A stretch of DNA of 62,900 nt. It comes from Nemertoderma westbladi (taxonomy: Eukaryota; Animalia; Xenacoelomorpha). The notes beneath the pieces were generated by a model that had not been told where the DNA came from, did not search any database, and was given only the letters and a program-made list of their open reading frames with translations. Positions 1 through 39,562 of the stretch are shown piece by piece; position 1 is the stretch's first letter; each line of letters starts with the position of its first letter. Location of the stretch: contig JAUCBJ010004355.1 of the NCBI GenBank assembly GCA_032718475.1, forward strand, positions 1 through 62,900, in the 5' to 3' direction. The translations under genes were made by a program, and so were the position numbers.

Positions 1-90
1 AGTTTTTGAGATATTGGATGGTTATACACACATATTACCATACATTACCTATTAAATGCGCACATACAATTGCCTAGGCATTTTAACAAC

Positions 91-278
91 CTGTATGCTG
101 TGGCGTTGGAACTGATCCACTATCCGGGGACACGTCGGTTTTCACATCAGGCGGTTTGTGAAAGGATATCTGGGATGCGAGTTCACGAATCTCGGTGTCC
201 CTCTGCGAGCGAGTTTCATCGACGTCTTCGGGTAGAAGTAGATCAGCTATCTTACCGCAGTTGGAGCAGACCCAGTCC
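91..278 (-). CDS. UBE2J1: UBE2J1-like coding exon (downstream of the giant intron)
   Basis: Minus strand after TTCCTTTTCTAG acceptor: G|DWVCSNCGKIADLLLPEDVDETRSQRDTEIRELASQISFHKPPDVKTDVSPDSGSVPTPQHT, resembling recalled vertebrate UBE2J1 DFCCEGCG...VLLP...EAKELARQISFK. Phase joins the upstream exon (CA+G = Gln). The 3' end at 91 (CAG|GTTGTT) is a weak donor and uncertain. Confidence 0.85.
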
Positions 279-554
279 CTAGAAAAGGAAACGTTTAACT
301 GTTAATGGGTTGGAGCAGACCCAGTCCCTAGAAAAGGAAACGTTTAACTATTAATGGGTTGGAGCAGACCCAGTCCCTAGAAAAGGAAACGTTTAACTAT
401 TAATGGGTTGGAGCAGACCCAGTCCCTAGAAAAGGAAACGTTTAACTGTTAGTGGGTTGGAGCAGACCCAGTCCCTAGAAAAGGAAACGTTTAACTATTA
501 ATGGGTTGGAGCAGACCCAGTCCCTAGAAAAAGAAACGTTTAACTCTTAATGGG
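261..554 (-). repeat. 49-bp tandem repeat x6 spanning the intron 3' splice site
   Basis: Units start at 261, 310, 359, 408, 457, 506 (+ strand TTGGAGCAGACCCAGTCCCTAGAAAAGGAAACGTTTAACTRTTAATGGG). Minus-strand reading: CCCATTAAYAGTTAAACGTTTCCTTTTCTAG|GGACTGGGTCTGCTCCAA. Confidence 0.95.
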
Positions 555-3500
555 AAATGTACAACGTCCTTGTAGAGAAGGAAGGTTTAATCTTGGTATC
601 GATCTCTTTACCAGCACCCATCTCTCTCCTACTTACTGCGATCTCTTTACCAGCACCCATCTCTCTCCTACTTACTGCGATCTCTTTACCAGCATCCATC
701 TCTCTCCTACTTACTGCGATCTCTTTACCAGCACCCATCTCTCCCCTACTTACTGAGATCTCTTTACCAGCACCCATCTCTCTCCTACTTACTGCGATCT
801 CTTTACCAGCACCCATCTCTCCCCTACTTACTGCGATCTCTTCACCAGCACCCATCTCTCTCCTACTTACTGCGATCTCTTTACCAGCACCCATCTCTCC
901 CCTACTTACTGCGATCTCTTTACCAGCACCCATCTCTCTCCTACTTACTGCCATCTCTTTACCAGCACCCATCTCTCCCCAACTTACTGCGATCTCTTCA
1001 CCAGCACCCATCTCTCCTCCTACTTACTGCGATCTCTTCACCAGCACCCATCTCTCTCCTACTTACTGCGATCTCTTTACCAGCACCCATCTCTCTCCTA
1101 CTTACTGCGATCTCTTTACCAGCACCCATCTCTCCCCAACTTACTGCGATCTCTTCACCAGCACCCATCTCTCCCCTACTTACTGCGATCTCTTTACCAG
1201 CACCCATCTCTCTCCTACTTACTGCGATCTCTTTACCAGCATCCATCTCTCCCCTACTTACTGCGATCTCTTCACCAGCACCCATCTCTCCCCTACTTAC
1301 TGAGATCTCTTTACCAGCACCCATCTCTCTCCTACTTACTGCGATCTCTTTACCAGCATCCATCTCTCCCCTACTTACTGCGATCTCTTTACCAGCACCC
1401 ATATCTCTCCTACTTACTGCCATCTCTTTACCAGCACCCATCTCTCCTCTCTACTCACTGCGATCTCTTTACCAGCACCCATCTCTCTCCTACTTACTGC
1501 GATCTCTTTACCAGCACCCATCTCTCCTCTACTTACTGCCATCTCTTTACCAGCACCCATCTCTCTCCTACTCACTGCGATCTCTTTACCAGCACCCATC
1601 TCTCTCCTACTTACTGCGATCTCTTTACCAGCACCCATCTCTCTCCTACTTACTGCGATCTCTTTACCAGCACCCATCTCTCCTCCTACTTACTGCGATC
1701 TCTTTACCAGCACCCATCTCTCTCCTACTTACTGCGATCTCTTTACCAGCATCCATCTCTCCTCCTACTTACTGCGATCTCTTTACCAGCACCCATCTCT
1801 CCCCTACTTACTGCGATCTCTTTACCAGCACCCATCTCTCTCCTACTTACTGCGATCTCTTTACCAGTACCCATCTCTCCCCAACTTACTGCGATCTCTT
1901 CACCAGCACCCATCTCTCTCCTACTTACTGCGATCTCTTTCACCAGCACCCATCTCTCTCCTACTTACTGCGATCTCTTTACCAGCATCCATCTCTCTCC
2001 TACTTACTGCGATCTCTTTACCAGCACCCATCTCTCCCCAACATACTGCGATCTCTTCGCCAGCACCCATCTCTCCTCCTACTTACTGCGATCTCTTTAC
2101 CAGCATCCATCTCTCCTCCTACTTACTGCGATCTCTTTACCAGCACCCATCTCTCTCCTACTTACTGCGATCTCTTTACCAGCATCCATCTCTCTCCTAC
2201 TTACTGCCATCTCTTTACCAGCACCCATCTCTCCCCAACATACTGCGATCTCTTCACCAGCACCCATCTCTCTCCTACTTACTGCGATCTCTTTACCAGC
2301 ATCCATCTCTCTCCTACTTACTGCCATCTCTTTACCAGCATCCATCTCTCTCCTACTTACAGCGATCTCTTTACCAGCACCCATCTCTCTCCTACTTACT
2401 GCGATCTCTTCACCAGCACCCATCTCTCTCCTACTTACTGCGATCTCTTTACCAGCATCCATCTCTCTCCTACTTACTGCGAACTCTTTACCAGCACCCA
2501 TCTCTCTCCTACTTACTGCGATCTCTTTACCAGCATCCATCTCTCTCCTACTTAATGCGATCTCTTTACCAGCACCCATCTCTCATCTACTCACTGCAAT
2601 CTCTTTACCAGCACCCATCTCTCTCCTACTCACTGCGATCTCTTTACCAGCACCCATGCACCCATCTCTCTCCACTCACTGCGATCTCTTTACCAGCAGC
2701 CATCTTTCCCCTACTTACTGCGATCTCTTCACCAACACCCATCTCTCTCCTACTTAGTGCGATCTGTTCACCAGCACCCATCTCTCCTCTACTTACTGCC
2801 ATCTCTTTACCAGCACCCATCTCTCCTCTACTTACTGCCATCTCTTTACCAGCACCCATCTCTCCTCTACTTACTGCCATCTCTTTACCAGCACCCATCT
2901 CTCCTCTACTTACTGTCTCATCTCTTCACCAGCACCCATCTCTCCTCTACTTACTGCCATCTCTTTACCAGCACCCATCACTCCACTACTTACTGCGATA
3001 TCTTTACCAGCACCATCTCTCCTCTACTTACTGTGATATCTTTACCAGCACCCATCTCTCCTCTACTTAGTGCGATCTCTCTATCAGCACCCATCTCTCA
3101 TCTACTTACTGCGATCTCTTTACCAGCACCCATCTTTCCTCTACTTACTGCGATCTCTTTACCAGCACCCATCTCCCCCCCACTACTTACTGCCATCTCT
3201 TTACCAGCACCCATCTCTCCTCTACTTACTGCGATCTCTTTACCAGCACCCATCTCTCATCTACTTAATGCGATCTCTTTACCAGCACCCATCTTTCCTC
3301 TACTTACTGCGATCTCTTTACCAGCACCCATCTCTCCTCAACTTACTGCGATCTCTTTACCAGCACCCATCTCTCCTCAACTTACTGCGATCTCTTTACC
3401 AGCACCCATCTCTCCTCTCTACTCACTGCGATCACTTTACCAGCACCCATCTCTCTCCTACTTACTGCGATCTCTTTATCAGCACCCATCTCTCCCCTAC

Positions 3501-6500
3501 TTACTGCGATCTCTTTACCAGCACCAATCTCTCCTCTACTTACTGCGATCTCTTTACCAGCATCCATCTCTCTCCTACTTAATGCGATCTCTTTACCAGC
3601 ACCCATCTCTCATCTACTCACTGCAATCTCTTTACCAGCACCCATCTCTCTCCTACTCACTGCGATCTCTTTACCAGCACCCATGCACCCATCTCTCTCC
3701 TACTTACTGCGATCTCTTTACCAGCACCAATCTCTCCTCTACTTACTGCGATCTCTTTACCAGCACCCATATCTCTCCAACATACTGCGATCTCTTTGCC
3801 AGCACCCATCTCTCCTCTACTTACTGCGATCTCTTTACCAGCATCCATCTCTCCTCTCTACTTACTGCGATCACTTTACCAGCACCCATCTCTCTCCTAC
3901 TTACTGCGATCTCTTTACCAGCATCCATCTCTCTCCTACTTACTGCCATCTCTTTACCAGCACCCATCTCTCCCCAACATACTGCGATCTCTTCACCAGC
4001 ACCCATCTCTCTCCTACTTACTGCGATCTCTTTACCAGCATCCATCTCTCTCCTACTTACTGCCATCTCTTTACCAGCATCCATCTCTCTCCTACTTACA
4101 GCGATCTCTTTACCAGCACCCATCTCTCTCCTACTTACTGCGATCTCTTCACCAGCACCCATCTCTCTCCTACTTACTGCGATCTCTTTACCAGCATCCA
4201 TCTCTCTCCTACTTACTGCGAACTCTTTACCAGCACCCATCTCTCTCCTACTTACTGCGATCTCTTTACCAGCATCCATCTCTCTCCTACTTAATGCGAT
4301 CTCTTTACCAGCACCCATCTCTCATCTACTCACTGCAATCTCTTTACCAGCACCCATCTCTCTCCTACTCACTGCGATCTCTTTACCAGCACCCATGCAC
4401 CCATCTCTCTCCACTCACTGCGATCTCTTTACCAGCACCCATCTTTCCCCTACTTACTGCGATCTCTTCACCAACACCCATCTCTCTCCTACTTAGTGCG
4501 ATCTCTTCACCAGCACCCATCTCTCCTCTACTTACTGCCATCTCTTTACCAGCACCCATCTCTCCTCTACTTACTGCCATCTCTTTACCAGCACCCATCT
4601 CTCCTCTACTTACTGCCATCTCTTTACCAGCACCCATCTCTCCTCTACTTACTGTCTCATCTCTTCACCAGCACCCATCTCTCCTCTACTTACTGCCATC
4701 TCTTTACCAGCACCCATCACTCCACTACTTACTGCGATATCTTTACCAGCACCATCTCTCCTCTACTTACTGTGATATCTTTACCAGCACCCATCTCTCC
4801 TCTACTTAGTGCGATCTCTCTATCAGCACCCATCTCTCATCTACTTACTGCGATCTCTTTACCAGCACCCATCTTTCCTCTACTTACTGCGATCTCTTTA
4901 CCAGCACCCATCTCCCCCCCACTACTTACTGCCATCTCTTTACCAGCACCCATCTCTCCTCTACTTACTGCGATCTCTTTACCAGCACCCATCTCTCATC
5001 TACTTAATGCGATCTCTTTACCAGCACCCATCTTTCCTCTACTTACTGCGATCTCTTTACCAGCACCCATCTCTCCTCAACTTACTGCGATCTCTTTACC
5101 AGCACCCATCTCTCCTCAACTTACTGCGATCTCTTTACCAGCACCCATCTCTCCTCTCTACTCACTGCGATCACTTTACCAGCACCCATCTCTCTCCTAC
5201 TTACTGCGATCTCTTTATCAGCACCCATCTCTCCCCTACTTACTGCGATCTCTTTACCAGCACCAATCTCTCCTCTACTTACTGCGATCTCTTTACCAGC
5301 ATCCATCTCTCTCCTACTTAATGCGATCTCTTTACCAGCACCCATCTCTCATCTACTCACTGCAATCTCTTTACCAGCACCCATCTCTCTCCTACTCACT
5401 GCGATCTCTTTACCAGCACCCATGCACCCATCTCTCTCCACTCACTGCGATCTCTTTACCAGCACCAATCTCTCCTCTACTTACTGCGATCTCTTTACCA
5501 GCACCCATATCTCTCCTACTTACTGCGATCTCTTTGCCAGCACCCATCTCTCCTCTACTTACTGCGATCTCTTTACCAGCACCCATCTCTCCTCTCTACT
5601 CACTGCGATCACTTTACCAGCACCCATCTCTCTCCTACTTACTGCGATCTCTTTATCAGCACCCATCTCTCCCCTACTTACTGCGATCTCTTTACCAGCA
5701 CCAATCTCTCCTCTACTTACTGCCATCTCTTTACCAGCACCCATCACTCCACTACTTACTGCGATATCTTTACCAGCACCATCTCTCCTCTACTTACTGT
5801 GATATCTTTACCAGCACCCATCTCTCCTCTACTTAGTGCGATCTCTCTATCAGCACCCATCTCTCATCTACTTACTGCGATCTCTTTACCAGCACCCATC
5901 TTTCCTCTACTTACTGCGATCTCTTTACCAGCACCCATCTCCCCCCCACTACTTACTGCCATCTCTTTACCAGCACCCATCTCTCCTCTACTTACTGCGA
6001 TCTCTTTACCAGCACCCATCTCTCATCTACTTAATGCGATCTCTTTACCAGCACCCATCTTTCCTCTACTTACTGCGATCTCTTTACCAGCACCCATCTC
6101 TCCTCAACTTACTGCGATCTCTTTACCAGCACCCATCTCTCCTCAACTTACTGCGATCTCTTTACCAGCACCCATCTCTCCTCTCTACTCACTGCGATCA
6201 CTTTACCAGCACCCATCTCTCTCCTACTTACTGCGATCTCTTTATCAGCACCCATCTCTCCCCTACTTACTGCGATCTCTTTACCAGCACCAATCTCTCC
6301 TCTACTTACTGCGATCTCTTTACCAGCACCCATATCTCTCCTACTTACTGCGATCTCTTTGCCAGCACCCATCTCTCCTCTACTTACTGCGATCTCTTTA
6401 CCAGCACCCATCTCTCCTCTCTACTCACTGCGATCACTTTACCAGCACCCATCTCTCTCCTACTTACTGCGATCTCTTTATCAGCACCCATCTCTCCCCT

Positions 6501-9500
6501 ACTCACTGCGATCTCTTCACCAGCACCCTTATCTCTCCTACTTACTGCGATCTCTTTACCAGCACCCTTATCTCTCCTACTTACTGCGATCTCTTCACCA
6601 GCACCCATCTCTCCCCTACTTACTGCGATCTCTTTGCCAGCACCCATCTCTCCTCTACTTACTGCGATCTCTTCACCAGCACCCATCTCTCCCCTACTTA
6701 CTGCGATCTCTTTGCCAGCACCCATCTCTCCTCTACTTACTGCGATCTCTTCACCAGCACCCATCTCTCCCCTACTCACTGCGATCTCTTTGCCAGCACC
6801 CATCTCTCCTCTACTTACTGCGATCTCTTTACCAGCACCCATCTCTCCTCTCTACTAACTGCGATCACTTTACCAGCACCCATCTCTCTCCTACTTACTG
6901 CGATCTCTTTATCAGCACCCATCTCTCCCCTACTTACTGCGATCTCTTTACCAGCACCCATCTCTCCTCTACTTACTGCGATATCTTTGCCAGCACCCAT
7001 CTCTCCTCTACTTACTGCGATCTCTTTACCACCACCCATCTCTCCTGTCTACTCACTGCGATCACTTTACCAGCACCCATCTCTCCCCTACTTACTGCGA
7101 TCTCTTTATCAGCACCCATCTCTCCCCTACTTACTGCGATCTCTTTACCAGCACCAATCTCTCCTCTACTTACTGCGATCTCTTTACCAGCACCCATATC
7201 TCTCCTACTTACTGCGATCTCTTTGCCAGCACCCATCTCTCCTCTACTTACTGCGATCTCTTTACCAGCACCCATCTCTCCTCTCTACTCACTGCGATCA
7301 CTTTACCAGCACCCATCTCTCTCCTACTTACTGCGATCTCTTTATCAGCACCCATCTCTCCCCTACTTACTGCGATCTCTTTACCAGCACCAATCTCTCC
7401 TCTACTTACTGCGATCTCTTTACCAGCACCCATCTCTCCCCTACTCACTGCGATCTCTTCACCAGCACCCTTATCTCTCCTACTTACTGCGATCTCTTTA
7501 CCAGCACCCTTATCTCTCCTACTTACTGCGATCTCTTCACCAGCACCCATCTCTCCCCTACTTACTGCGATCTCTTTGCCAGCACCCATCTCTCCTCTAC
7601 TTACTGCGATCTCTTCACCAGCACCCATCTCTCCCCTACTTACTGCGATCTCTTTGCCAGCACCCATCTCTCCTCTACTTACTGCGATCTCTTCACCAGC
7701 ACCCATCTCTCCCCTACTCACTGCGATCTCTTTGCCAGCACCCATCTCTCCTCTACTTACTGCGATCTCTTTACCAGCACCCATCTCTCCTCTCTACTAA
7801 CTGCGATCACTTTACCAGCACCCATCTCTCTCCTACTTACTGCGATCTCTTTATCAGCACCCATCTCTCCCCTACTTACTGCGATCTCTTTACCAGCACC
7901 CATCTCTCCTCTACTTACTGCGATATCTTTGCCAGCACCCATCTCTCCTCTACTTACTGCGATCTCTTTACCACCACCCATCTCTCCTGTCTACTCACTG
8001 CGATCACTTTACCAGCACCCATCTCTCCCCTACTTACTGCGATCTCTTTATCAGCACCCATCTCTCCCCTACTTACTGCGATCTCTTCACCAGCACCCAT
8101 CTCTCCCCTACTCACTGCGATCTCTTTGCCAGCACCCATCTCTCCTCTACTTACTGCGATCTCTTTACCAGCACCCATCTCTCCTCTCTACTCACTGCGA
8201 TCACTTTACCAGCACCCATCTCTCCCCTACTTACTGCGATCTCTTTACCAGCACCCATCTCTCCTCTACTTACTGCGATATCTTTGCCAGCACCCATCTC
8301 TCCTCTACTTACTGCGATCTCTTTACCACCACCCATCTCTCCTGTCTACTCACTGCGATCACTTTACCAGCACCCATCTCTCCCCTACTTACTGCGATCT
8401 CTTTATCAGCACCCATCTCTCCCCTACTTACTGCGATCTCTTTACCAGCACCAATCTCTCCTCTACTTACTGCGATCTCTTTACCAGCACCCATATCTCT
8501 CCTACTTACTGCGATCTCTTTGCCAGCACCCATCTCTCCTCTACTTACTGCGATCTCTTTACCAGCACCCATCTCTCCTCTCTACTCACTGCGATCACTT
8601 TACCAGCACCCATCTCTCTCCTACTTACTGCGATCTCTTTATCAGCACCCATCTCTCCCCTACTTACTGCGATCTCTTTACCAGCACCAATCTCTCCTCT
8701 ACTTACTGCGATCTCTTTACCAGCACCCATCTCTCCCCTACTCACTGCGATCTCTTCACCAGCACCCTTATCTCTCCTACTTACTGCGATCTCTTTACCA
8801 GCACCCTTATCTCTCCTACTTACTGCGATCTCTTCACCAGCACCCATCTCTCCCCTACTTACTGCGATCTCTTTGCCAGCACCCATCTCTCCTCTACTTA
8901 CTGCGATCTCTTCACCAGCACCCATCTCTCCCCTACTTACTGCGATCTCTTTGCCAGCACCCATCTCTCCTCTACTTACTGCGATCTCTTCACCAGCACC
9001 CATCTCTCCCCTACTCACTGCGATCTCTTTGCCAGCACCCATCTCTCCTCTACTTACTGCGATCTCTTTACCAGCACCCATCTCTCCTCTCTACTAACTG
9101 CGATCACTTTACCAGCACCCATCTCTCTCCTACTTACTGCGATCTCTTTATCAGCACCCATCTCTCCCCTACTTACTGCGATCTCTTTACCAGCACCCAT
9201 CTCTCCTCTACTTACTGCGATATCTTTGCCAGCACCCATCTCTCCTCTACTTACTGCGATCTCTTTACCACCACCCATCTCTCCTGTCTACTCACTGCGA
9301 TCACTTTACCAGCACCCATCTCTCCCCTACTTACTGCGATCTCTTTATCAGCACCCATCTCTCCCCTACTTACTGCGATCTCTTCACCAGCACCCATCTC
9401 TCCCCTACTCACTGCGATCTCTTTGCCAGCACCCATCTCTCCTCTACTTACTGCGATCTCTTTACCAGCACCCATCTCTCCTCTCTACTCACTGCGATCA

Positions 9501-12500
9501 CTTTACCAGCACCCATCTCTCTCCTACTTACTGCGATCTCTTTATCAGCACCCATCTCTCCCCTACTTACTGCGATCTCTTTACCAGCACCCATCTCTCC
9601 CCTACTTACTGCGATATCTTTACCAGCACCCATCTCTCTCCTACTTACTGCGATCTCTTTACCAGTACCCATCTCTCCTCTACTTACTGCGATCTCTTTA
9701 CCAGCACCCATCTCTCCTCTCTACTCACTGCGATCACTTTACCAGCACCCATCTCTCTCCTACTTACTGCGATCTCTTTATCAGCACCCATCTCTCCCCT
9801 ACTTACTGCGATCTCTTTACCAGCACCCATCTCTCTCCTACTTACTGCGATCTCTTCACCAGCACCCATCTCTCCTCTACTTACTGCGATATCTTTACCA
9901 GCACCCATCTCTCCCCTACTCACTGCGATCTCTTCACCAGCACCCTTATCTCTCCTACTTACTGCGATCTCTTCACCAGCACCCATCTCTCCCCTACTTA
10001 CTGCGATCTCTTTACCAGCATCCATATCTCTCCTACTTACTGCGATCTCTTTACCAGCACCCATCTCTCTCCTACTTACTGCGATCTCTTTACCAGCATC
10101 CATCTCTCCCCTACTTACTGCGATCTCTTTGCCAGCACCCATCTCTCCTCTACTTACTGCCATCTCTTCACCAGCACCCATCTCTCCTCTACTTACTGCG
10201 ATCTCTTTACCAGCACCCATCTCTCTCCTACTTAATGCGATCTCTTTACCAGCACCCATCTCTCTCCTACTCACTGCGATCTCTTTACCAGCATCCATCT
10301 CTCTCCTACTTACTGCGATATTTTACCAGCACCCATCTCTCCTCTACTTACTGCCATCTCTTTACCAGCTCCCATCTCTCTCCGACTTACTGCGATCTTT
10401 TACCAGCACCCATCCCTCTCTCTCTCCTACTCACTGCGATCTCTTTACCAGCACCCATCTCTCCTCTACTTACTGCGATCTCTTTGCCAGCACCCATCTC
10501 TCCTCTACTTACTGCGATCTCTTTACCAGCACCCATCTCTCTCCTACTCACTGCGATCTCTTTACTAGCACCCATCTTTCCCCTACTTACTGCCATCTCT
10601 TTACCAGCTCCCATCTCTCTCCGACTTACTGCGATCTTTTACCAGCAGCCATCTCTCCTCTACATACTGCCATCTCTTTACCAGCACCCATCTCTCTCTC
10701 TCTCCTACTCACTGCGATCTCTTTACCAGCACCCATGCACCCATCTCTCTCCTACTCACTGCGATCTCTTTATCAGCACCCATCTCTCCCCTACTTACTG
10801 CGATCTCTTTACCAGCACCCATCTCTCCCCTACTTACTGCGATATCTTTACCAGCACCCATCTCTCTCCTACTTACTGCGATCTCTTTACCAGTACCCAT
10901 CTCTCCTCTACTTACTGCGATCTCTTTACCAGCACCCATCTCTCCTCTCTACTCACTGCGATCACTTTACCAGCACCCATCTCTCTCCTACTTACTGCGA
11001 TCTCTTTATCAGCACCCATCTCTCCCCTACTTACTGCGATCTCTTTACCAGCACCCATCTCTCTCCTACTTACTGCGATCTCTTCACCAGCACCCATCTC
11101 TCCTCTACTTACTGCGATCTCTTTACCAGCACCCATCTCTCCCCTACTCACTGCGATCTCTTCACCAGCACCCTTATCTCTCCTACTTACTGCGATCTCT
11201 TCACCAGCACCCATCTCTCCCCTACTTACTGCGATCTCTTTACCAGCATCCATATCTCTCCTACTTACTGCGATCTCTTTACCAGCACCCATCTCTCTCC
11301 TACTTACTGCGATCTCTTTACCAGCATCCATCTCTCCCCTACTTACTGCGATCTCTTTGCCAGCACCCATCTCTCCTCTACTTACTGCCATCTCTTCACC
11401 AGCACCCATCTCTCCTCTACTTACTGCGATCTCTTTACCAGCACCCATCTCTCTCCTACTTAATGCGATCTCTTTACCAGCACCCATCTCTCTCCTACTC
11501 ACTGCGATCTCTTTACCAGCATCCATCTCTCTCCTACTTACTGCGATATTTTACCAGCACCCATCTCTCCTCTACTTACTGCCATCTCTTTACCAGCTCC
11601 CATCTCTCTCCGACTTACTGCGATCTTTTACCAGCACCCATCCCTCTCTCTCTCCTACTCACTGCGATCTCTTTACCAGCACCCATCTCTCCTCTACTTA
11701 CTGCGATCTCTTTGCCAGCACCCATCTCTCCTCTACTTACTGCGATCTCTTTACCAGCACCCATCTCTCTCCTACTCACTGCGATCTCTTTACTAGCACC
11801 CATCTTTCCCCTACTTACTGCCATCTCTTTACCAGCTCCCATCTCTCTCCGACTTACTGCGATCTTTTACCAGCAGCCATCTCTCCTCTACATACTGCCA
11901 TCTCTTTACCAGCACCCATCTCTCTCTCTCTCCTACTCACTGCGATCTCTTTACCAGCACCCATGCACCCATCTCTCTCCTACTCACTGCGATCTCTTTA
12001 CCAGCACCCATCTCTCTCCTACTCACTGCGATCTCTTTACCAGCATCCATCTCTCTCCTACTTACTGCCATCTCTTTACCAGCATCCATCTCTCTCCTAC
12101 TTACTGCGATCTCTTTACCAGCACCCATATTTCCCCTACTTACAGCGATCTCTTTACCCGCACGCATCTGTCTCCTACTTACTGCGATCTCTTTACCAGC
12201 ACCCATCTCTCTCCTACTTACTGCGATCTCTTTACCAGCACCCATCTCTCTCCTACTTAATGCGATATTTTACCAGCACCCATCTCTCCTCTACTTACTG
12301 CCATCTCTTTACCAGCTCCCATCTCTCTCCGACTTACTGCGATCTTTTACCAGCACCCATCCCTCTCTCTCTCCTACTCACTGCGATCTCTTTACCAGCA
12401 CCCATGCACCCATCTCTCTCCTACTCACTGCGATCTCTTTACTAGCACCCATCTCTCCCCTACTTACTGCCATCTCTTTACCAGCTCCCATCTCTCTCCG

Positions 12501-15500
12501 ACTTACTGCGATCTTTTACCAGCACCCATCTCTCCTCTACTTACTGCCATCTCTTTACCAGCTCCCATCTCTCTCCTACTTACTGCGATCTCTTTACCTG
12601 CATCCATCCCTCTCTCTCTCCTACTCACTGCGATCTCTTTACCAGCACCCATGCACCCATCTCTCTCCTACTCACTGCGATCTCTTTACCAGCACCCATG
12701 CACCCATCTCTCTCCTACTTACTGCCATCTCTTTACCAGCTCCCATCTCTCTCCGACTTACTGCGATCTTTTACCAGCACCCATCCCTCTCTCTCTCCTA
12801 CTCACTGCGATCTCTTTACCAGCACCCATGCACCCATCTCTCTCCTACTCACTGCGATCTCTTTACTAGCACCCATCTCTCCCCTACTTACTGCCATCTC
12901 TTTACCAGCTCCCATCTCTCTCCGACTTACTGCGATCTTTTACCAGCACCCATCTCTCCTCTACATACTGCCATCTCTTTACCAGCACCCATCTCTCTCT
13001 CTCTCCTACTTACTGCGATCTCTTTACCTGCATCCATCTCTCTCCTACTTACTGCGATCTCTTTACCAGCACCCGTCTCTCTCCTACTTACTGCGATCTC
13101 TTTACCAGCACCCATCTCTCTCCACTCACTGCGATCTCTTTACCAGCACCCATGTTTCCCCTACTTACTGCGATCTCTTCACCAGCACCCATCTCTCCTC
13201 TATTTACTGCGATCTTTTTACCAGCACCCATCTCTCCCCTACTTACTGCGATCTCTTTACCAGCACCAATCTCTCCTCTATTTACTGCGATCTTTTTACC
13301 AGCACCCATCTCTCTCCTACTCACTGCGATCTATTTACCAGCACCCATCTCCCTCCTACTCACTGCGATCTCTTTACCAGCACCCATCTCTCCTCTACTT
13401 ACTGCCATCTCTTTACCAGCACCCATCTCTCCTCTACTTACTGCCATCTCTTTACCAGCACCCATCTCTCCTCTACTTACTGCCATCTCTTTACCAGCAC
13501 CCATCTCTCCTCTACTTACTGTCTCATCTCTTCACCAGCACCCATCTCTCCTCTACTTACTGCCATCTCTTTACCAGCACCCATCACTCAACTACTTACT
13601 GCGATATCTTTACCAGCACCATCTCTCCTCTACTTACTGTGATATCTTTACCAGCACCCATCTCTCCTCTACTTAGTGCGATCTCTCTATCAGCACCCAT
13701 CTCTCATCTACTTACTGCGATCTCTTTACCAGCACCCATCTTTCCTCTACTTACTGCGATCTCTTTACCAGCACCCATCTCCCCCCCACTACTTACTGCC
13801 ATCTCTTTACCAGCACCCATCTCTCCTCTACTTACTGCGATCTCTTTACCAGCACCCATCTCTCATCTACTTAATGCGATCTCTTTACCAGCACCCATCT
13901 TTCCTCTACTTACTGCGATCTCTTTACCAGCACCCATCTCTCCTCAACTTACTGCGATCTCTTTACCAGCACCCATCTCTCCTCAACTTACTGCGATCTC
14001 TTTACCAGCACCCATCTCTCCTCTCTACTCACTGCGATCACTTTACCAGCACCCATCTCTCTCCTACTTACTGCGATCTCTTTATCAGCACCCATCTCTC
14101 CCCTACTTACTGCGATCTCTTTACCAGCACCAATCTCTCCTCTATTTACTGCGATCTTTTTACCAGCACCCATCTCTCTCCTACTTACTGCGATCTATTT
14201 ACCAGCACCCATCTCCCTCCTACTCACTGCGATCTCTTTACCAGCACCCATCTCTCCTCTACTTACTGCGATCTCTTTACCAGCACCCATATCTCTCCTA
14301 CTTACTGCGATCTTTTCACCAGCACCCATCTCTCCCCTATTTACTGCGATCTCTTCACCAGCACCCATCTCTCTCCTACTTACTGCGATATCTTTACCAG
14401 CACCCATCTCTCCTCTACTTACTGCGATCTCTTTACCAGCACCCATCTCTCATCTACTTACTGCGATCTCTTTACCAGCATCCATCTCTCCTCTACTTAC
14501 TGCGATCTCTTTACCAGCACCCATCTCTCATCTACTTACTGCGATCTCTTTACCAGCATCCATCTCTCCTCTACTTACTGCGATCTCTTTACCAGCACCC
14601 ATCTCTCCCCTACTTACTGCGATCTCTTTATCAGCACCCATCTCTCCCCTACTTACTGCGATCTCTTTACCAGCACGCATCTGTCTCCTACTTACTGCGA
14701 TCTCTTTACCAGCACCCATCTCTCTCCTACTTACTGCGATCTCTTCACCAGCACCCATCTCTCCCCTACTTACTGCGATCTCTTTACCAGGACCCATCTC
14801 TCTCCTACTTACTGCGATCTCTTTACCAGCACCCATCTCTCTCCTACTTACTGCGATCTCTTTACCAGCACCCATCTCTCTCCTACTTACTGCGATCTCT
14901 TTACCTGCACCCATCTCTCCCCTACTTACTGCGATCTCTTTACCAGCACCCATCTCTCCCCTACTTACTGCGATCTCTTTACCAGCACGCATCTGTCTCC
15001 TACTTACTGCGATCTCTTTACCAGCACCCATCTCTCTCCTACTTACTGCGATCTCTTCACCAGCACCCATCTCTCCTCTACTTACTGCGATCTCTTTACC
15101 AGCATCCATCTCTCCCCTACTTACTGCGATCTCTTTACCAGCACCCATCTCTCCCCTACTTACTGCGATCTCTTTACCAGCATCCATCTCTCCCCTACTT
15201 ACTGCGATCTTTTTACCAGCACGCATCTGTCTCCTACTTACTGCGATCTCTTTACCAGCACCCATCTCTCTCCTACTTACTGCGATCTCTTCACCAGCAC
15301 CCATCTCTCCTCTACTTACTGCGATCTCTTTACCAGCATCCATCTCTCCCCTACTTACTGCGATCTCTTTACCAGCACCCATCTCTCCCCTACTTACTGC
15401 GATCTCTTTACCAGCACCCATCTCTCCCCTACTTACTGCGATCTCTTTATCAGCACCCATCTCTCCCCTACTTACTGCGATCTCTTTACCAGCACGCATC

Positions 15501-18500
15501 TGTCTCCTACTTACTGCGATCTCTTTACCAGCACCCATCTCTCTCCTACTTACTGCGATCTCTTCACCAGCACCCATCTCTCCCCTACTTACTGCATCTC
15601 TTTACCAGGACCCATCTCTCTCCTACTTACTGCGATCTCTTTACCAGCACCCATCTCTCCCCTACTTACTGTGATCTCTTTACCAGCACGCATCTGTCTC
15701 CTACTTACTGCGATCTCTTTACCAGCACCCATCTCTCTCCTACTTACTGTGATCTCTTTACCAGCATCCATCTCTCTCCTACTTACTGCGATCTCTTTAC
15801 CTGCACCCATCTCTCCCCTACTTACTGTGATCTCTTTACCAGCACGCATCTGTCTCCTACTTACTGCGATCTCTTTACCAGCACCCATCTCTCTCCTACT
15901 TACTGCGATCTCTTCACCAGCACCCATCTCTCCCCTACTTACTGCGATCTCTTTACCAGCACCCATCTCTCTCCTACTCACTGCGATCTCTTTACCAGCA
16001 TCCATCTCTCTCCTACTTACTGCCATCTCTTTACCAGCATCCATCTCTCTCCTACTTACTGCGATCTCTTTACCAGCACCCATCTTTCCCCTACTTACAG
16101 CGATCTCTTTACCAGCACGCATCTGTCTCCTACTTACTGCGATCTCTTTACCAGCACCCATCTCTCTCCTACTTACTGCGATCTTTTACCAGCACCCATC
16201 TCTCCTCTACTTACTGCCATCTCTTTACCAGCTCCCATCTCTCTCCGACTTACTGCGATCTTTTACCAGCACCCATCTCTCTCTCTCTCCTACTCACTGC
16301 GATCTCTTTACCAGCACCCATGCACCCATCTCTCTCCTACTCACTGCGATCTCTTTACTAGCACCCATCTCTCCCCTACTTACTGCCATCTCTTTACCAG
16401 CTCCCATCTCTCTCCGACTTACTGCGTTCTTTTACCAGCACCCATCTCTCCTCTACATACTGCCATCTCTTTACCAGCACCCATCTCTCTCTCTCTCCTA
16501 CTCACTGCGATCTCTTTACCAGCACCCATCTTTCCCCTACTTACTGCGATCTCTTTACCAGCACCAATCTCTCCTCTATTTACTGCGATCTTTTTACCAG
16601 CACCCATCTCTCTCCTACTTACTGCGATCTATTTACCAGCACCCATCTCCCTCCTACTCACTGCGATCTCTTTACCAGCACCCATCTCTCTCCTACTTAA
16701 TGCGATCTCTTTACCAGCACCCATATCTCTCCTACTTACTGCGATCTTTTCACCAGCACCCATCTCTCCTCTACTTACTGCGATCTATTTACCATTACCC
16801 ATCTCTCTCCTACTTACTGCGATCTCTTTACCAGCACCCATCTCTCCCCTACTTACTGCGATCTCTTTACCAGCACCCATCTCTCCCCTACTTACTGAGA
16901 TCTCTTTACCAGCACCCATCTCTCTCCTACTTACTGCGATCTCTTTACCAGCACCCATCTCTCCCCTACTTACTGCGATCTCTTCACCAGCACCCATCTC
17001 TCCCCTACTTACTGCGATCTCTTTACCAGCACCCATCTCTCCCCTACTTACTGAGATCTCTTTACCAGCATCCATCTCTCTCCTACTTACTGCGATCTCT
17101 TTACCAGTACCCATCTCTCTCCTACTTACTGCGATCTCTTTACCAGCATCCATCTCTCCTCTCTACTCACTGCGATCTCTTTACCAGCACCCATCTCTCT
17201 CCTACTTACTGCGATCTCTTTACCAGCATCCATCTCTCCTCTACTTACTGCGATATCTTTACCAGCATCCATCTCTCTCCTACTTACTGCGATCTCTTTA
17301 CCAGTACCCATCTCTCTCCTACTTACTGCGATCTCTTTACCAGCATCCATCTCTCCTCTCTACTCACTGCGATCTCTTTACCAGCACCCATCTCCCTCCT
17401 ACTTACTGCGATCTCTTTACCAGCACCCATCTCTCCCCTACTTACTGCGATCTCTTCACCAGCACCCATCTCTCCCCTACTTACTGCGATCTCTTTACCA
17501 GCACCCATCTCTCCCCTACTTACTGCGATCTCTTTACCAGCACCCATCTCTCCCCAACTTACTGCGATCTCTTTACCAGCATCCATCTCTCTCCTACTTA
17601 CTGCGATCTCTTTACCAGTACCCATCTCTCTCCTACTTACTGCGATCTCTTTACCAGCATCCATCTCTCCTCTCTACTCACTGCGATCTCTTTACCAGCA
17701 CCCATCTCTCTCCTACTTACTGCGATCTCTTTACCAGCATCCATCTCTCCTCTACTTACTGCGATATCTTTACCAGCATCCATCTCTCTCCTACTTACTG
17801 CGATCTCTTTACCAGTACCCATCTCTCTCCTACTTACTGCGATCTCTTTACCAGCATCCATCTCTCCTCTCTACTCACTGCGATCTCTTTACCAGCACCC
17901 ATCTCCCTCCTACTTACTGCGATCTCTTTACCAGCACCCATCTCTCCCCTACTTACTGAGATCTCTTTACCAGCATCCATCTCTCTCCTACTTACTGCGA
18001 TCTCTTTACCAGTACCCATCTCTCTCCTACTTACTGCGATCTCTTTACCAGCATCCATCTCTCCTCTCTACTCACTGCGATCTCTTTACCAGCACCCATC
18101 TCCCTCCTACTTACTGCGATCTCTTTACCAGCATCCATCTCTCCTCTACTTACTGCGATCTCTTTACCAGCACCGATCTCTCCCCTACTTACTGCGATCT
18201 CTTCACCAGCACCCATCTCTCCCCTACTTACTGCGATTTCTTTACCAGCACCCATCTCTCCTCTACTTACTGCGATATCTTTACCAGCACCCATCTCTCC
18301 TCTACTTACTGCGATCTCTTTACCAGCACCCATCTCTCCCCTACTTACTGCGATCTCTTCACCAGCACCCATCTCTCCCCTACTTACTGCGATCTCTTTA
18401 CCAGCACCCATCTCTCCTCTACTTACTGCGATATCTTTACCAGCACCCATCTCTCCCCTACTTACTGCGATCTCTTCACCAGCACCCATCTCTCCCCTAC

Positions 18501-21500
18501 TTACTGCGATCTCTTCACCAGCACCCATCTCTCCCCTACTTACTGAGATCTCTTTACCAGCACCCATCTCTCCCCTACTTACTGAGATCTCTTTACCAGC
18601 ACCCATCTCTCTCCTACTTACTGCGATCTCTTTACCAGCATCCATCTCTCCCCTACTTACTGAGATCTCCTTACCAGCACCCATCTCTCATCTACTCACT
18701 GCAATCTCTTCACCAGCACCCATCTCTCTCCTACTTACTGCGATCTCTTTACCAGCATCCATCTCTCTCCAACTTACTGCGATCTCTTCACCAGCACCCA
18801 TCTCTCTCCTACTTACTGCGATCTCTTTACCAGCATCCATCTCTCCTCTACTTACTGCGATATCTTTACCAGCACCATCTCTCCTCTACTTAATGCGATC
18901 TCTTTATCAGCACCCATCTCTCCCCTACTTACTGCGATCTCTTTACCAGCACCAATCTCTCCTCTACTTACTGCCATCTCTTTACCAGCATCCATATCTC
19001 TCCTACTTACTGAGATCTCTTTACCAGCACCCATCTCTCATCTACTCACTGCAATCTCTTCACCAGCACCCATCTCTCTCCTACTTACTGCGATCTCTTT
19101 ACCAGCATCCATCTCTCTCCAACTTACTGCGATCTCTTCACCAGCACCCATCTCTCTCCTACTTACTGCGATCTCTTTACCAGCATCCATCTCTCTCCTA
19201 CTTACTGCGATCTCTTTACCAGCATCCATCTCTCTCCTACTTACTGCGATCTCTTTACCTGCATCCATCTCTCCTCTACTTACTGCGATCTCTTTATCAG
19301 CACCCATCTCCCTCCTACTTACTGAGATCTCTTTACCAGCATCCATCTCTCTCCTACTTACTGCGACCTCTTTACCAGCACCCATCTCTCTCCTACTTAC
19401 TGCGATCTCTTTACCAGCACCCATCTCTCTCCTACTTACTGCGACCTCTTTACCAGCACCCATCTCTCTCCTACTTACTGCGATCTCTTTACCTGCATCC
19501 ATCTCTCCTCTACTTACTGCGATCTCTTTATCAGCACCCATCTCCCTCCTACTTACTGAGATCTCTTTACCAGCATCCATCTCTCTCCTACTTACTGCGA
19601 CCTCTTTACCAGCACCCATCTCTCTCCTACTTACTGCGACCTCTTTACCAGCACCCATCTCTCTCCTACTTACTGCGACCTCTTTACCAGCACCCATCTC
19701 TCTCCTACTTACTGCGATCTCTTTACCAGCACCCATCTCTCCCCTACTTACTGAGATCTCTTTACCAGCACCCATATCTCCCCTACTTACTGCGATCTCT
19801 TTACCAGCATCCATATCTCTCCTACTTACTGCGATCTCTTTACCAGTACCCATCTATCTCCTACTTACTGAGATCTCTTTACCTGCATCCATCTCTCCTC
19901 TACTTAGTGCGACCTCTTTACCAGCACCCATCTCTCTCCTACTTACTGCGACCTCTTTACCAGCACCCATCTCTCTCCTACTTACTGCGATCTCTTTACC
20001 AGCACCCATCTCTCCCCTACTTACTGAGATCTCTTTACCAGCACCCATCTCTCCCCTACTTACTGAGATCTCTTTACCAGCATCCATCTCTCTCCTACTT
20101 ACTGCGATCTCTTTATCAGCACCCATATCTCCCCTACTTACTGCGATCTCTTTACCAGCATCCATATCTCTCCTACTTACTGCGATCTCTTTATCAGCAC
20201 CCATCTCTCATCTACTTACTACGACCTCTTTACCAGCACCCATCTCTCCCCTACTTACTGAGATCTCTTTACCAGCACCCATCTCTCCCCTACTTACTGA
20301 GATCTCTTTACCAGCACCCATCTCTCCCCTACTTACTGAGATCTCTTTACCAGCATCCATCTCTCTCCTACTTACTGCGATCTCTTTATCAGCACCCATA
20401 TCTCCCCTACTTACTGCGACCTCTTTACCAGCACCCATCTCTCTCCTACTTACTGCGATCTCTTTACCAGCACCCATCTCTCCCCTACTTACTGAGATCT
20501 CTTTACCAGCACCCATCTCTCCCCTACTTACTGAGATCTCTTTACCAGCACCCATCTCTCCCCTACTTACTGAGATCTCTTTACCAGCATCCATCTCTCT
20601 CCTACTTACTGCGATCTCTTTATCAGCACCCATATCTCCCCTACTTACTGCGATCTCTTTACCAGCATCCATATCTCTCCTACTTACTGCGATCTCTTTA
20701 TCAGCACCCATCTCTCATCTACTTACTACGACCTCTTTATCAGCACCCATCTCTCATCTACTTACTACGACCTCTTTACCAGCACCCATCTCTCTCCTAC
20801 TTACTGCGATCTCTTTACCAGCACCCATCTCTCCCCAACTTACTGCGATCTCTTCACCAGCACCCATCTCTCTCCTACTTACTGCGATCTCTTTACCTGC
20901 ATCCATCTCTCCTCTACTTAGTGCGACCTCTTTACCAGCACCCATCTCTCCCCTACTTACTGAGATCTCTTTACCAGCATCCATCTCTCTCCTACTTACT
21001 GCGATCTCTTTATCAGCACCCATATCTCCCCTACTTACTGCGATCTCTTTACCAGCATCCATATCTCTCCTACTTACTGCGATCTCTTTATCAGCACCCA
21101 TCTCTCATCTACTTACTACGACCTCTTTACCAGCACCCATCTCTCTCCTACTTACTGAGATCTCTTTACCAGCATCCATCTCTCTCCTACTTACTGCGAT
21201 CTCTTCACCAGCACCCATCTCTCCCCTATTTACTGCGATCTCTTCACCAGCACCCATCTCTCCCCTATTTACTGCGATCTCTTTACCAGCATCCATCTCT
21301 CTCCTACTTACTGCGATCTCTTTACCTGCATCCATCTATCCTCTACTTACTGCGATCTCTTTACCAGCATCCATCTCTCTCCTACTTACTGCGATCTCTT
21401 TACCAGCATCCATCTCTCTCCTACTTACTGAGATCTCTTTACCAGCATCCATCTCTCTCCTACTTACTGCGATCTCTTTACCTGCATCCATCTCTCCTCT

Positions 21501-24500
21501 ACTTAATGCGATCTCTTTATCAGCACCCATATCTCCCCTACTTACTGCGATCTCTTTACCAGCATCCATCTCTCCTCTACTTACTGCGATCTCTTTACCA
21601 GCATCCATCTCTCTCCTACTTACTGCGATCTCTTTATCAGCACCCATCTCTCTCCTACTTACTGCGATCTCTTTACCTGCATCCATCTATCCTCTACTTA
21701 CTGCGATCTCTTCACCAGCACCCATCTCTCTCCTACTTACTGCGATCTCTTTACCAGCACCCATATCTCTCCTACTTACTGCGATCTCTTTACCAGCACC
21801 CATCTCTCCCCTACTTACTGCGATCTCTTTACCAGCACCCATCTCTCCCCTACTTACTGCGATCTCTTTACCAGCATCCATCTCTCCCCTACTTACTGCG
21901 ATCTCTTTACCAGCACGCATCTGTCTCCTACTTACTGCGATCTCTTTACCAGCACCCATCTCTCTCCTACTTACTGCGATCTCTTCACCAGCACCCATCT
22001 CTCCTCTACTTACTGCGATCTCTTTACCAGCATCCATCTCTCCCCTACTTACTGCGATCTCTTTACCAGCACCCATCTCTCTCCTACTTACTGCGATCTC
22101 TTTACCAGCACCCATCTCTCCCCTACTTACTGCGATCTCTTTATCAGCACCCATCTCTCCCCTACTTACTGCGATCTCTTTACCAGCACGCATCTGTCTC
22201 CTACTTACTGCGATCTCTTTACCAGCACCCATCTCTCTCCTACTTACTGCGATCTCTTCACCAGCACCCATCTCTCCCCTACTTACTGCATCTCTTTACC
22301 AGGACCCATCTCTCTCCTACTTACTGCGATCTCTTTACCAGCACCCATCTCTCCCCTACTTACTGTGATCTCTTTACCAGCACGCATCTGTCTCCTACTT
22401 ACTGCGATCTCTTTACCAGCACCCATCTCTCTCCTACTTACTGTGATCTCTTTACCAGCATCCATCTCTCTCCTACTTACTGCGATCTCTTTACCTGCAC
22501 CCATCTCTCCCCTACTTACTGTGATCTCTTTACCAGCACGCATCTGTCTCCTACTTACTGCGATCTCTTTACCAGCACCCATCTCTCTCCTACTTACTGC
22601 GATCTCTTCACCAGCACCCATCTCTCCCCTACTTACTGCGATCTCTTTACCAGCACCCATCTCTCTCCTACTCACTGCGATCTCTTTACCAGCATCCATC
22701 TCTCTCCTACTTACTGCCATCTCTTTACCAGCATCCATCTCTCTCCTACTTACTGCGATCTCTTTACCAGCACCCATCTTTCCCCTACTTACAGCGATCT
22801 CTTTACCAGCACGCATCTGTCTCCTACTTACTGCGATCTCTTTACCAGCACCCATCTCTCTCCTACTTACTGCGATCTTTTACCAGCACCCATCTCTCCT
22901 CTACTTACTGCCATCTCTTTACCAGCTCCCATCTCTCTCCGACTTACTGCGATCTTTTACCAGCACCCATCTCTCTCTCTCTCCTACTCACTGCGATCTC
23001 TTTACCAGCACCCATGCACCCATCTCTCTCCTACTCACTGCGATCTCTTTACTAGCACCCATCTCTCCCCTACTTACTGCCATCTCTTTACCAGCTCCCA
23101 TCTCTCTCCGACTTACTGCGTTCTTTTACCAGCACCCATCTCTCCTCTACATACTGCCATCTCTTTACCAGCACCCATCTCTCTCTCTCTCCTACTCACT
23201 GCGATCTCTTTACCAGCACCCATCTTTCCCCTACTTACTGCGATCTCTTTACCAGCACCAATCTCTCCTCTATTTACTGCGATCTTTTTACCAGCACCCA
23301 TCTCTCTCCTACTTACTGCGATCTATTTACCAGCACCCATCTCCCTCCTACTCACTGCGATCTCTTTACCAGCACCCATCTCTCTCCTACTTAATGCGAT
23401 CTCTTTACCAGCACCCATATCTCTCCTACTTACTGCGATCTTTTCACCAGCACCCATCTCTCCTCTACTTACTGCGATCTATTTACCATTACCCATCTCT
23501 CTCCTACTTACTGCGATCTCTTTACCAGCACCCATCTCTCCCCTACTTACTGCGATCTCTTTACCAGCACCCATCTCTCCCCTACTTACTGAGATCTCTT
23601 TACCAGCACCCATCTCTCTCCTACTTACTGCAATCTCTTTACCAGCACCCATCTCTCCCCTACTTACTGCGATCTCTTCACCAGCACCCATCTCTCCCCT
23701 ACTTACTGCGATCTCTTTACCAGCACCCATCTCTACCCTACTTACTGAGATCTCTTTACCAGCATCCATCTCTCTCCTACTTACTGCGATCTCTTTACCA
23801 GTACCCATCTCTCTCCTACTTACTGCGATCTCTTTACCAGCATCCATCTCTCCTCTCTACTCACTGCGATCTCTTTACCAGCACCCATCTCTCTCCTACT
23901 TACTGCGATCTCTTTACCAGCATCCATCTCTCCTCTACTTACTGCGATATCTTTACCAGCACCCATCTCTCCTCTACTTACTGCGATCTCTTTACCAGCA
24001 CCGATCTCTCCCCTACTTACTGCGATCTCTTCACCAGCACCCATCTCTCCCCTACTTACTGCGATTTCTTTACCAGCACCCATCTCTCCTCTACTTACTG
24101 CGATATCTTTACCAGCACCCATCTCTCCTCTACTTACTGCGATCTCTTTACCAGCACCCATCTCTCCCCTACTTACTGCGATCTCTTCACCAGCACCCAT
24201 CTCTCCCCTACTTACTGCGATCTCTTTACCAGCACCCATCTCTCCTCTACTTACTGCGATATCTTTACCAGCACCCATCTCTCCCCTACTTACTGCGATC
24301 TCTTCACCAGCACCCATCTCTCCCCTACTTACTGCGATCTCTTCACCAGCACCCATCTCTCCCCTACTTACTGAGATCTCTTTACCAGCACCCATCTCTC
24401 CCCTACTTACTGAGATCTCTTTACCAGCACCCATCTCTCTCCTACTTACTGCGATCTCTTTACCAGCATCCATCTCTCCCCTACTTACTGAGATCTCCTT

Positions 24501-27500
24501 ACCAGCACCCATCTCTCATCTACTCACTGCAATCTCTTCACCAGCACCCATCTCTCTCCTACTTACTGCGATCTCTTTACCAGCATCCATCTCTCTCCAA
24601 CTTACTGCGATCTCTTCACCAGCACCCATCTCTCTCCTACTTACTGCGATCTCTTTACCAGCATCCATCTCTCCTCTACTTACTGCGATATCTTTACCAG
24701 CACCATCTCTCCTCTACTTAATGCGATCTCTTTATCAGCACCCATCTCTCCCCTACTTACTGCGATCTCTTTACCAGCACCAATCTCTCCTCTACTTACT
24801 GCCATCTCTTTACCAGCATCCATATCTCTCCTACTTACTGAGATCTCTTTACCAGCACCCATCTCTCATCTACTCACTGCAATCTCTTCACCAGCACCCA
24901 TCTCTCTCCTACTTACTGCGATCTCTTTACCAGCATCCATCTCTCTCCAACTTACTGCGATCTCTTCACCAGCACCCATCTCTCTCCTACTTACTGCGAT
25001 CTCTTTACCAGCATCCATCTCTCTCCTACTTACTGCGATCTCTTTACCAGCATCCATCTCTCTCCTACTTACTGCGATCTCTTTACCTGCATCCATCTCT
25101 CCTCTACTTACTGCGATCTCTTTATCAGCACCCATCTCCCTCCTACTTACTGAGATCTCTTTACCAGCATCCATCTCTCTCCTACTTACTGCGACCTCTT
25201 TACCAGCACCCATCTCTCTCCTACTTACTGCGATCTCTTTACCAGCACCCATCTCTCTCCTACTTACTGCGACCTCTTTACCAGCACCCATCTCTCTCCT
25301 ACTTACTGCGATCTCTTTACCTGCATCCATCTCTCCTCTACTTACTGCGATCTCTTTATCAGCACCCATCTCCCTCCTACTTACTGAGATCTCTTTACCA
25401 GCATCCATCTCTCTCCTACTTACTGCGACCTCTTTACCAGCACCCATCTCTCTCCTACTTACTGCGACCTCTTTACCAGCACCCATCTCTCTCCTACTTA
25501 CTGCGACCTCTTTACCAGCACCCATCTCTCTCCTACTTACTGCGATCTCTTTACCAGCACCCATCTCTCCCCTACTTACTGAGATCTCTTTACCAGCACC
25601 CATATCTCCCCTACTTACTGCGATCTCTTTACCAGCATCCATCTCTCATCTACTTACTGCGATCTCTTTACCAGCATCCATATCTCTCCTACTTACTGCG
25701 ATCTCTTTACCAGTACCCATCTATCTCCTACTTACTGAGATCTCTTTACCTGCATCCATCTCTCTCCTACTTACTGCGATCTCTTTACCAGCATCCATCT
25801 CTCTCCTACTTACAGCGATCTCTTTACCAGCACCCATCTCTCTCCTCTACTTAGTGCGACCTCTTTACCAGCACCCATCTCTCTCCTACTTACTGCGACC
25901 TCTTTACCAGCACCCATCTCTCTCCTACTTACTGCGATCTCTTTACCAGCACCCATCTCTCCCCTACTTACTGAGATCTCTTTACCAGCACCCATCTCTC
26001 CCCTACTTACTGAGATCTCTTTACCAGCATCCATCTCTCTCCTACTTACTGCGATCTCTTTATCAGCACCCATATCTCCCCTACTTACTGCGATCTCTTT
26101 ACCAGCATCCATATCTCTCCTACTTACTGCGATCTCTTTATCAGCACCCATCTCTCATCTACTTACTACGACCTCTTTACCAGCACCCATCTCTCCCCTA
26201 CTTACTGAGATCTCTTTACCAGCACCCATCTCTCCCCTACTTACTGAGATCTCTTTACCAGCACCCATCTCTCCCCTACTTACTGAGATCTCTTTACCAG
26301 CATCCATCTCTCTCCTACTTACTGCGATCTCTTTATCAGCACCCATATCTCCCCTACTTACTGCGACCTCTTTACCAGCACCCATCTCTCTCCTACTTAC
26401 TGCGATCTCTTTACCAGCACCCATCTCTCCCCTACTTACTGAGATCTCTTTACCAGCACCCATCTCTCCCCTACTTACTGAGATCTCTTTACCAGCACCC
26501 ATCTCTCCCCTACTTACTGAGATCTCTTTACCAGCATCCATCTCTCTCCTACTTACTGCGATCTCTTTATCAGCACCCATATCTCCCCTACTTACTGCGA
26601 TCTCTTTACCAGCATCCATATCTCTCCTACTTACTGCGATCTCTTTATCAGCACCCATCTCTCATCTACTTACTACGACCTCTTTATCAGCACCCATCTC
26701 TCATCTACTTACTACGACCTCTTTACCAGCACCCATCTCTCTCCTACTTACTGCGATCTCTTTACCAGCACCCATCTCTCCCCAACTTACTGCGATCTCT
26801 TCACCAGCACCCATCTCTCTCCTACTTACTGCGATCTCTTTACCTGCATCCATCTCTCCTCTACTTAGTGCGACCTCTTTACCAGCACCCATCTCTCCCC
26901 TACTTACTGAGATCTCTTTACCAGCATCCATCTCTCTCCTACTTACTGCGATCTCTTTATCAGCACCCATATCTCCCCTACTTACTGCGATCTCTTTACC
27001 AGCATCCATATCTCTCCTACTTACTGCGATCTCTTTATCAGCACCCATCTCTCATCTACTTACTACGACCTCTTTACCAGCACCCATCTCTCTCCTACTT
27101 ACTGAGATCTCTTTACCAGCATCCATCTCTCTCCTACTTACTGCGATCTCTTCACCAGCACCCATCTCTCCCCTATTTACTGCGATCTCTTCACCAGCAC
27201 CCATCTCTCCCCTATTTACTGCGATCTCTTTACCAGCATCCATCTCTCTCCTACTTACTGCGATCTCTTTACCTGCATCCATCTATCCTCTACTTACTGC
27301 GATCTCTTTACCAGCATCCATCTCTCTCCTACTTACTGCGATCTCTTTACCAGCATCCATCTCTCTCCTACTTACTGAGATCTCTTTACCAGCATCCATC
27401 TCTCTCCTACTTACTGCGATCTCTTTACCTGCATCCATCTCTCCTCTACTTAATGCGATCTCTTTATCAGCACCCATATCTCCCCTACTTACTGCGATCT

Positions 27501-39500: not shown

Positions 39501-39533
39501 CTCTTTACCTGCATCCATCTCTCTCATACTTAC
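279..39533 (-). other. UBE2J1: Giant phase-2 GT-AG intron of the UBE2J1-like gene (39,255 bp)
   Basis: Donor CGCA|GTAAGTAT at 39533 and acceptor TTTTCTAG|G at 279. Splicing restores ...VLAKRSQDWVCSNCG..., collinear with recalled UBE2J1 ...ALAKKSQDFCCEGCG. Confidence 0.85.
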
Positions 39534-39562
39534 TGCGATCTCTTTGCCAGCACCCGTCTCTC
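600..39562 (-). repeat. 39-bp minisatellite array, ~1000 copies, derived from the exon/5' splice-site junction
   Basis: + strand consensus CGATCTCTTTACCAGCACCCATCTCTCTCCTACTTACTG; minus strand GAGAGATGGGTGCTGGTAAAGAGATCGCA|GTAAGTAGGA. Copy number estimated as length/39. Contains indel variants and kb-scale higher-order duplications. Confidence 0.97.

Follow-up and report, generated by a model that had tools for sequence, protein, structure and literature searches.

Tandem copies of both splice boundaries fill a 39-kb UBE2J1 intron in Nemertoderma westbladi, and spliced contigs join its outermost sites

Tandem repeats whose units extend over an exon–intron boundary have been described in amphioxus under the name of mirage minisatellites, in Adh3, troponin C, the globin genes BflGb6 and BflGb9, and PGBD5; they lie at either boundary and leave splicing undisturbed (PMC3087553, PMC3902484). 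In BflGb6, the acceptor-side mirage is reported to differ between the two haplotypes, with six units against three (PMC3087553). Related cases come from human genes. The CBS insertion 844ins68 duplicates an intron/exon junction, and the distal 3′ splice site is used to give normal mRNA (PMC2630376, PMC1802585); G runs between the duplicated acceptors drive this distal choice (PMC1802585), and a 31-bp VNTR in CBS is a further human case (PMC2630376). In F7, the first unit of the 37-bp IVS7 VNTR spans the exon/intron boundary, and the most upstream donor alone is used (PMC1557585). ABCA7 intron 18 carries a very long donor-bearing array, a 25-bp VNTR of up to ~427 units, in which a second donor is detectably used and the length of which alters exon skipping; such arrays are therefore not always silent (PMC5954066).

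Here we analyse a 62,900-nt stretch of DNA (the window) from Nemertoderma westbladi, the minus strand of which carries part of a UBE2J1 gene. Judged by their sequence, two arrays in one intron of this gene belong to the already described class of mirage minisatellites. As in the amphioxus genes, tandem copies lie over the exon–intron boundary, AG and GT are kept and normal mRNA arises from the authentic sites, a statement that concerns the dominant form only. The likeness is closest to BflGb6, in which the intron 3′ end and exon start are copied six times on one haplotype, and the 39- and 49-bp units fall within the range reported for Adh3 (10–72 bp). Unlike the amphioxus mirages as reported, the UBE2J1 donor array extends over 39 kb in ~990 units, and the two arrays together take up >99% of the intron. 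CBS 844ins68 has two competing sites, compared with six in UBE2J1; in CBS, the choice was shown to depend on G runs, whereas the UBE2J1 acceptor units carry just GGG triplets, with a candidate role. F7 IVS7 offers five to nine sites against ~840–990 in UBE2J1, 81 of which are predicted to pair with U1 at least as well as the real donor. The UBE2J1 donor array exceeds that of ABCA7 more than twofold in units and, in contrast to the second-donor use reported for ABCA7, the UBE2J1 contigs show the outer joint only. No paper on arrays of hundreds of donor copies was found in the open-access literature, and the scale of the locus, with ~990 donor-side units and arrays at both ends of one intron, is unusual. 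An initial annotation of this DNA overlooked the ~990-unit donor array in the same intron, as well as the fact that boundary-spanning repeats had already been described.

The UBE2J1 gene in the window

A search listed eight sequencing runs, of which five contain the query or part of it; none is recorded as RNA, and three are possible sources of the window's DNA. The contigs described below come from runs X1 to X5, and X8 yielded no contig. X4 and X5 are labelled 'DNA?', and we infer their RNA nature from spliced joints. Two UBE2J1 exons were located (here and below, a slash marks the splice site):

39534..39681, minus strand: exon A of 148 nt, running from phase 1 to phase 2 and encoding the end of the E2 core; the X4 spliced contig covers 39533–39685
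91..278, minus strand: exon B, 188 nt, ending at the donor CAG/GTTGTT; X4 contig on 89–278 with 0 differences

The translation of exon A matched UBE2J1 proteins with E 2e-20 and 80–86% identity (best 120 of 1,014 matches), bearing out the gene identity proposed in the initial annotation. The names among these best 120 of 1,014 matches were UBE2J1, the remainder being unnamed, and UBE2J2 and Ubc6 structures showed weaker similarity to the E2 core than UBE2J1 proteins did. The last exons of the gene are outside the window, and its upstream exons were not found in the window by a search that detected five of five control pieces. Upstream of exon A, the X4 contig reads ...KICLSIS, a motif like the catalytic-cysteine region of homologs (read by eye); past exon B, it keeps the frame and runs on into a further exon. 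Motifs from both of these loose ends, 5′ of exon A and 3′ of exon B, are absent from the window. The gene is thus intact and expressed; an orphan UBE2J1 fragment was ruled out, as the contig extends into flanking exons on both sides.

Some additional features lie close to these exons. Inside exon B, 23 nt past the acceptor at 278, a donor-like GCG/GTAAGATA occurs at 256/255 on the minus strand, with a predicted U1 pairing of -8.2 compared with -5.6 for the real donor of exon B; the X4 contig does not use it. The intron after exon B contains a short dispersed element at 44–88, where several DNA contigs from other loci match just 40 nt.

On the plus strand, a SORL1-like gene with VPS10, LDL-receptor class A and FN3 domains occupies 52879–59695; its 2,287 stop-free codons and likely donor at 59695 indicate a single exon of ~6.8 kb, possibly a retrocopy or a case of extreme intron loss. 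Because upstream UBE2J1 exons are absent from the window, the SORL1-like gene is likely to lie antisense within a UBE2J1 intron of >23 kb. X4 contains 0.96 of the words sampled from the SORL1-like gene. A 44/45-bp GC-rich array of ~190 units (39932–48329) lies 250 nt upstream of the exon A acceptor and includes donor-like GAG/GTGGGT (157 copies) and GC-box-like motifs, with no evident exon origin. Two 21-bp arrays (49841–50107 and 50596–50716), in opposite orientation, have a GAACTTAGATC core in common. Further copies are dispersed over the interval, and the arrays are perhaps the remnant of a mobile element.

Duplicated intron ends

Nearly all of the window's first 40 kb is tandem repeat. The intron between exons A and B is composed of the following features:

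279..39533, minus strand: GT-AG intron of 39,255 nt, its ends fixed by contig joints
39526..39536, minus strand: authentic donor GCA/GTAAGTAT, used in the X4 and X5 joints
600..39562, minus strand: 39-bp donor-side mirage, 992.7 copies, each ~29–31 nt of the exon A end plus ~8–10 nt of the donor
555..599, minus strand: unique spacer of 45 nt between both arrays; one X2 contig runs from it into the first 49-bp unit
260..554, minus strand: 49-bp acceptor-side mirage, six units, each composed of the final 30 nt of the intron and the first 19 nt of the exon
523, 474, 425, 376 and 327, minus strand: first exon bases of the decoy acceptors
477–475, 428–426, 379–377, 330–328 and 281–279, minus strand: in-frame TAG after each decoy, in each case the next acceptor's own TAG
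278..281, minus strand: productive acceptor TAG/G, first exon base 278; X4 and X5 loose ends run through 277–248

Copies of its own two boundaries thus make up >99% of the 39,255-nt intron. On the donor side, the 39-bp consensus matches the last 29 nt of exon A at 27 of 29 positions, and of 887 donor units that a pattern search placed in register, 838 start with GT. Exact GCA/GTAAGT occurs 685 times in the intron, the authentic donor included, and is absent from 14,571 nt outside the arrays. The intron contains GTAAGTAT at the authentic donor only, and GTAAGTAG 758 times. Every later donor would lead to an immediate stop (TAA, intron +2 to +4), because read-through of the first donor gives CAG TAA. 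The donor array comprises 186 distinct units among 788 segments, and runs of identical units, up to 42 units long, recur at lags of 68–150 units, pointing to block duplications inside the array. Higher-order block duplications of 3.7–6.7 kb were also observed within the 39-bp array at 15397–37913.

On the acceptor side, Tandem Repeats Finder (TRF) reports a period of 49 bp at 260–554, with 6.0 copies and 97% matches; the six 49-mers fall into four sequence variants. Each unit contributes a TTCTAG/ acceptor (first exon bases 523, 474, 425, 376, 327 and 278), with TAG kept in all six, and no other YAG site in the 39,255-nt intron has 8 or more pyrimidines among the 12 positions before it. Signal strength does not favour the productive acceptor: judged by eye, the best branch-point match (CTAAC) belongs to the 425 decoy and the longest U tract to the 523 decoy. 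When spliced in silico to exon A, the decoys give 15 codons, DWVCSNPL(I/T)VKRFLF, followed by a stop that lies ~16 residues beyond the end of the conserved core and 189–385 nt upstream of the next exon junction. Splicing to 278 gives an open frame that aligns with UBE2J1 homologs, and this is the sole acceptor of the six to do so. The initial annotation had described six tandem acceptors, the last alone being productive and the other five running into premature TAGs, and both TRF and in silico splicing agree with it in full.

Both intron ends are therefore tandemly duplicated, and the outermost pair alone keeps the frame. The 45-nt spacer is likely to be a remnant of the original intron interior, and we infer that the units of both arrays arose and multiplied by slippage or unequal crossing-over.

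Joints and repeats in short-read contigs

The dominant splice runs from the first donor (39534) to the last acceptor (278). In X4, one contig of 1,202 nt at a depth of 3,142 spans this outer joint unbroken, with record positions 464–653 corresponding to window 89–278 and 653–805 to window 39533–39685, with 0 differences. Loose ends in X4 match the authentic last 30 nt of exon A and window 277–248. X5, which comes from another sample and study, shows the same 39534-to-278 joint in a loose end that is 255 nt long or more. In both runs, the stretch 277–248 takes in bases that follow the last acceptor copy alone. The bypass of five near-identical acceptors, predicted in the initial annotation, is thus seen in the contigs of both X4 and X5. 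The same annotation suggested that leaky use of the inner acceptors yields substrates of nonsense-mediated decay (NMD) or a soluble E2; this part is unsupported, as no decoy junction occurs among the X4 contigs or the X5 loose ends (139 X5 contigs), although contigs drop rare forms.

These observations bear on two readings in which the inner sites have a product. In the first, the arrays form a regulated unproductive-splicing switch: inner sites are used at a tuned rate, their products undergo NMD and array length sets the UBE2J1 dose. Such a switch would accord with the stop that follows each inner site (189–385 nt before the next junction on the acceptor side), with the near-identical signals that the decoys retain and with the use of a second donor copy and the length-dependent splicing reported for ABCA7 (PMC5954066), and NMD would hide decoy products from contigs. 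However, duplication by itself places a stop after each inner site, with no need for selection, and repeats that are young and homogenised should carry identical signals; with no decoy junction in X4 contigs (1 and 1) or X5 loose ends (139 contigs), we regard the switch as unlikely.

In the second reading, inner acceptors give rise to a UBE2J1 protein that is stable and soluble, with the E2 core but no membrane anchor. The position of the decoy stop, ~16 residues past the conserved core, would allow this, and the protein would lack the hydrophobic stretch that lies within the last 50 residues in 108 of 120 UBE2J1 homologs. The contigs contain no such junction, however, and a stop well upstream of a later exon junction is the classic layout for NMD. 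With the decoy stops 189–385 nt ahead of the following junction, the usual junction rule makes decay more probable than a soluble E2 that persists, which we find barely credible.

The repeats themselves are present in short-read contigs. Contigs of 76–79 nt from X1, X2 and X3 cross the 49-bp unit-to-unit joint (40–352; among the matches listed), so at least two acceptor-side copies exist outside the assembly. Contigs give no copy number, so neither the six units nor length variation can be read from the three DNA runs. On 39456–39925, X2 yielded 322 contigs, with a summed depth of 4,000–38,000 at unit-like positions compared with 28.6 on unique DNA, values that stand for an order of magnitude and not for a copy number. 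Over the 49-bp unit, summed contig depth in X2 was 69–102 compared with 33, from which no copy number is drawn. Contigs of the 39-bp unit are numerous in X2 and X5. Cover is absent from 279–352 and 39456–39532 in X4 and from most of exon B in X1 and X3, and such holes alone prove nothing.

The copy numbers might be partly an assembly artefact or private to one haplotype. Long identical blocks in the donor array (runs of up to 42 units) would favour this, as would the inability of contigs to count copies and the possibility that three of the DNA runs are the window's own source. By contrast, neither array is uniform, with 186 different sequences in 788 donor-side segments and four in the six 49-mers. 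The 49-bp joint is crossed by short-read contigs, and the summed depth of donor-unit contigs in X2 is 4,000–38,000 against 28.6 on unique DNA. We regard this reading as very improbable.

On 39456–39925, X5 contains, besides the spliced joint, a 436-nt contig over exon A and the unspliced upstream intron. Its contigs of the array unit reach very great depth, whereas no more than 0.05 of the sampled words of the SORL1-like gene are present. X5 could derive from RNA with a high share of pre-mRNA; alternatively, a transcript may begin upstream of exon A.

Selection of the outer pair

We consider it likely that the arrays are tolerated, probably non-functional mirage minisatellites and that the outer-only joint results from exon definition across the shortest span. 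If the spliceosome defines each exon over the shortest span, the arrays would be tolerated. Exon A is flanked by long introns, and its acceptor would pair with the nearest donor (148-nt exon); the exon B donor would pair with the nearest acceptor, 278, over 188 nt compared with 237–433 nt for the decoys. No acceptor-like site was found in the donor array and every decoy donor precedes every decoy acceptor, so that no pseudo-exon should be definable. Consistent with this model, human data from one study indicate that sites closest across the exon are favoured where flanking introns are long; the rule is clear for 5′ sites, and for 3′ sites it just weakens the upstream preference (PMC9225289). 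The exon-centric rule alone may thus be insufficient for acceptor choice.

Whereas position sets the real sites apart, strength and structure do not, and three other selectors were considered and rejected. Donor strength cannot act as the sole selector: in predicted U1 duplexes, 81 of 3,634 other GT sites equal or beat the authentic donor and 951 are within 1 kcal, and the margin of the authentic donor over the most frequent copy is just 0.3 kcal. RNA structure was set aside because predicted YAG accessibility is alike at all six acceptors (0.33–0.39, with 0.38 at the productive one). As to recursive splicing, the 76 CAG/GTAAAG sites have no pyrimidine tract and the six acceptor-like sites are followed by GG.

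Candidate helpers of exon definition are silencer-like UAGG or UAGA motifs behind the decoy donors, G runs between the acceptors and an extra U1 pair of the authentic donor at +8. Every acceptor, the productive one included, reads TAG/GGA, which we take to be an hnRNP A1 motif. The donor array contains 669 TAGG and 253 GGGG, and TAGG occurs 0 times in either exon; UAGG and GGGG motifs are reported to silence an exon in GRIN1 (PMC1079783). Rare inner splice products would probably be cleared by NMD.

The arrays could also be a functional splice-site field, in which ~900 U1-binding donors and five decoy acceptors act as a length-variable rheostat and a silencer motif in each copied donor keeps the outer joint as the default. 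We think this quite unlikely; if true, the field would send a tuned fraction of the UBE2J1 pre-mRNA into decay or titrate U1 snRNP.

Under the preferred reading of tolerated mirage minisatellites, the locus belongs to a class already known and changes no model. It offers a natural stress test of splice-site choice, with an inner pair ~110 nt apart and an outer pair 39 kb apart, and the use of the outer pair in RNA is as exon definition predicts, contrary to intron-centred proximity. Its donor-bearing array is the largest found in the open-access literature searched (~990 units compared with ~427 in ABCA7), and the locus shows that duplication of its two ends can account for nearly all of an intron's growth to 39 kb.
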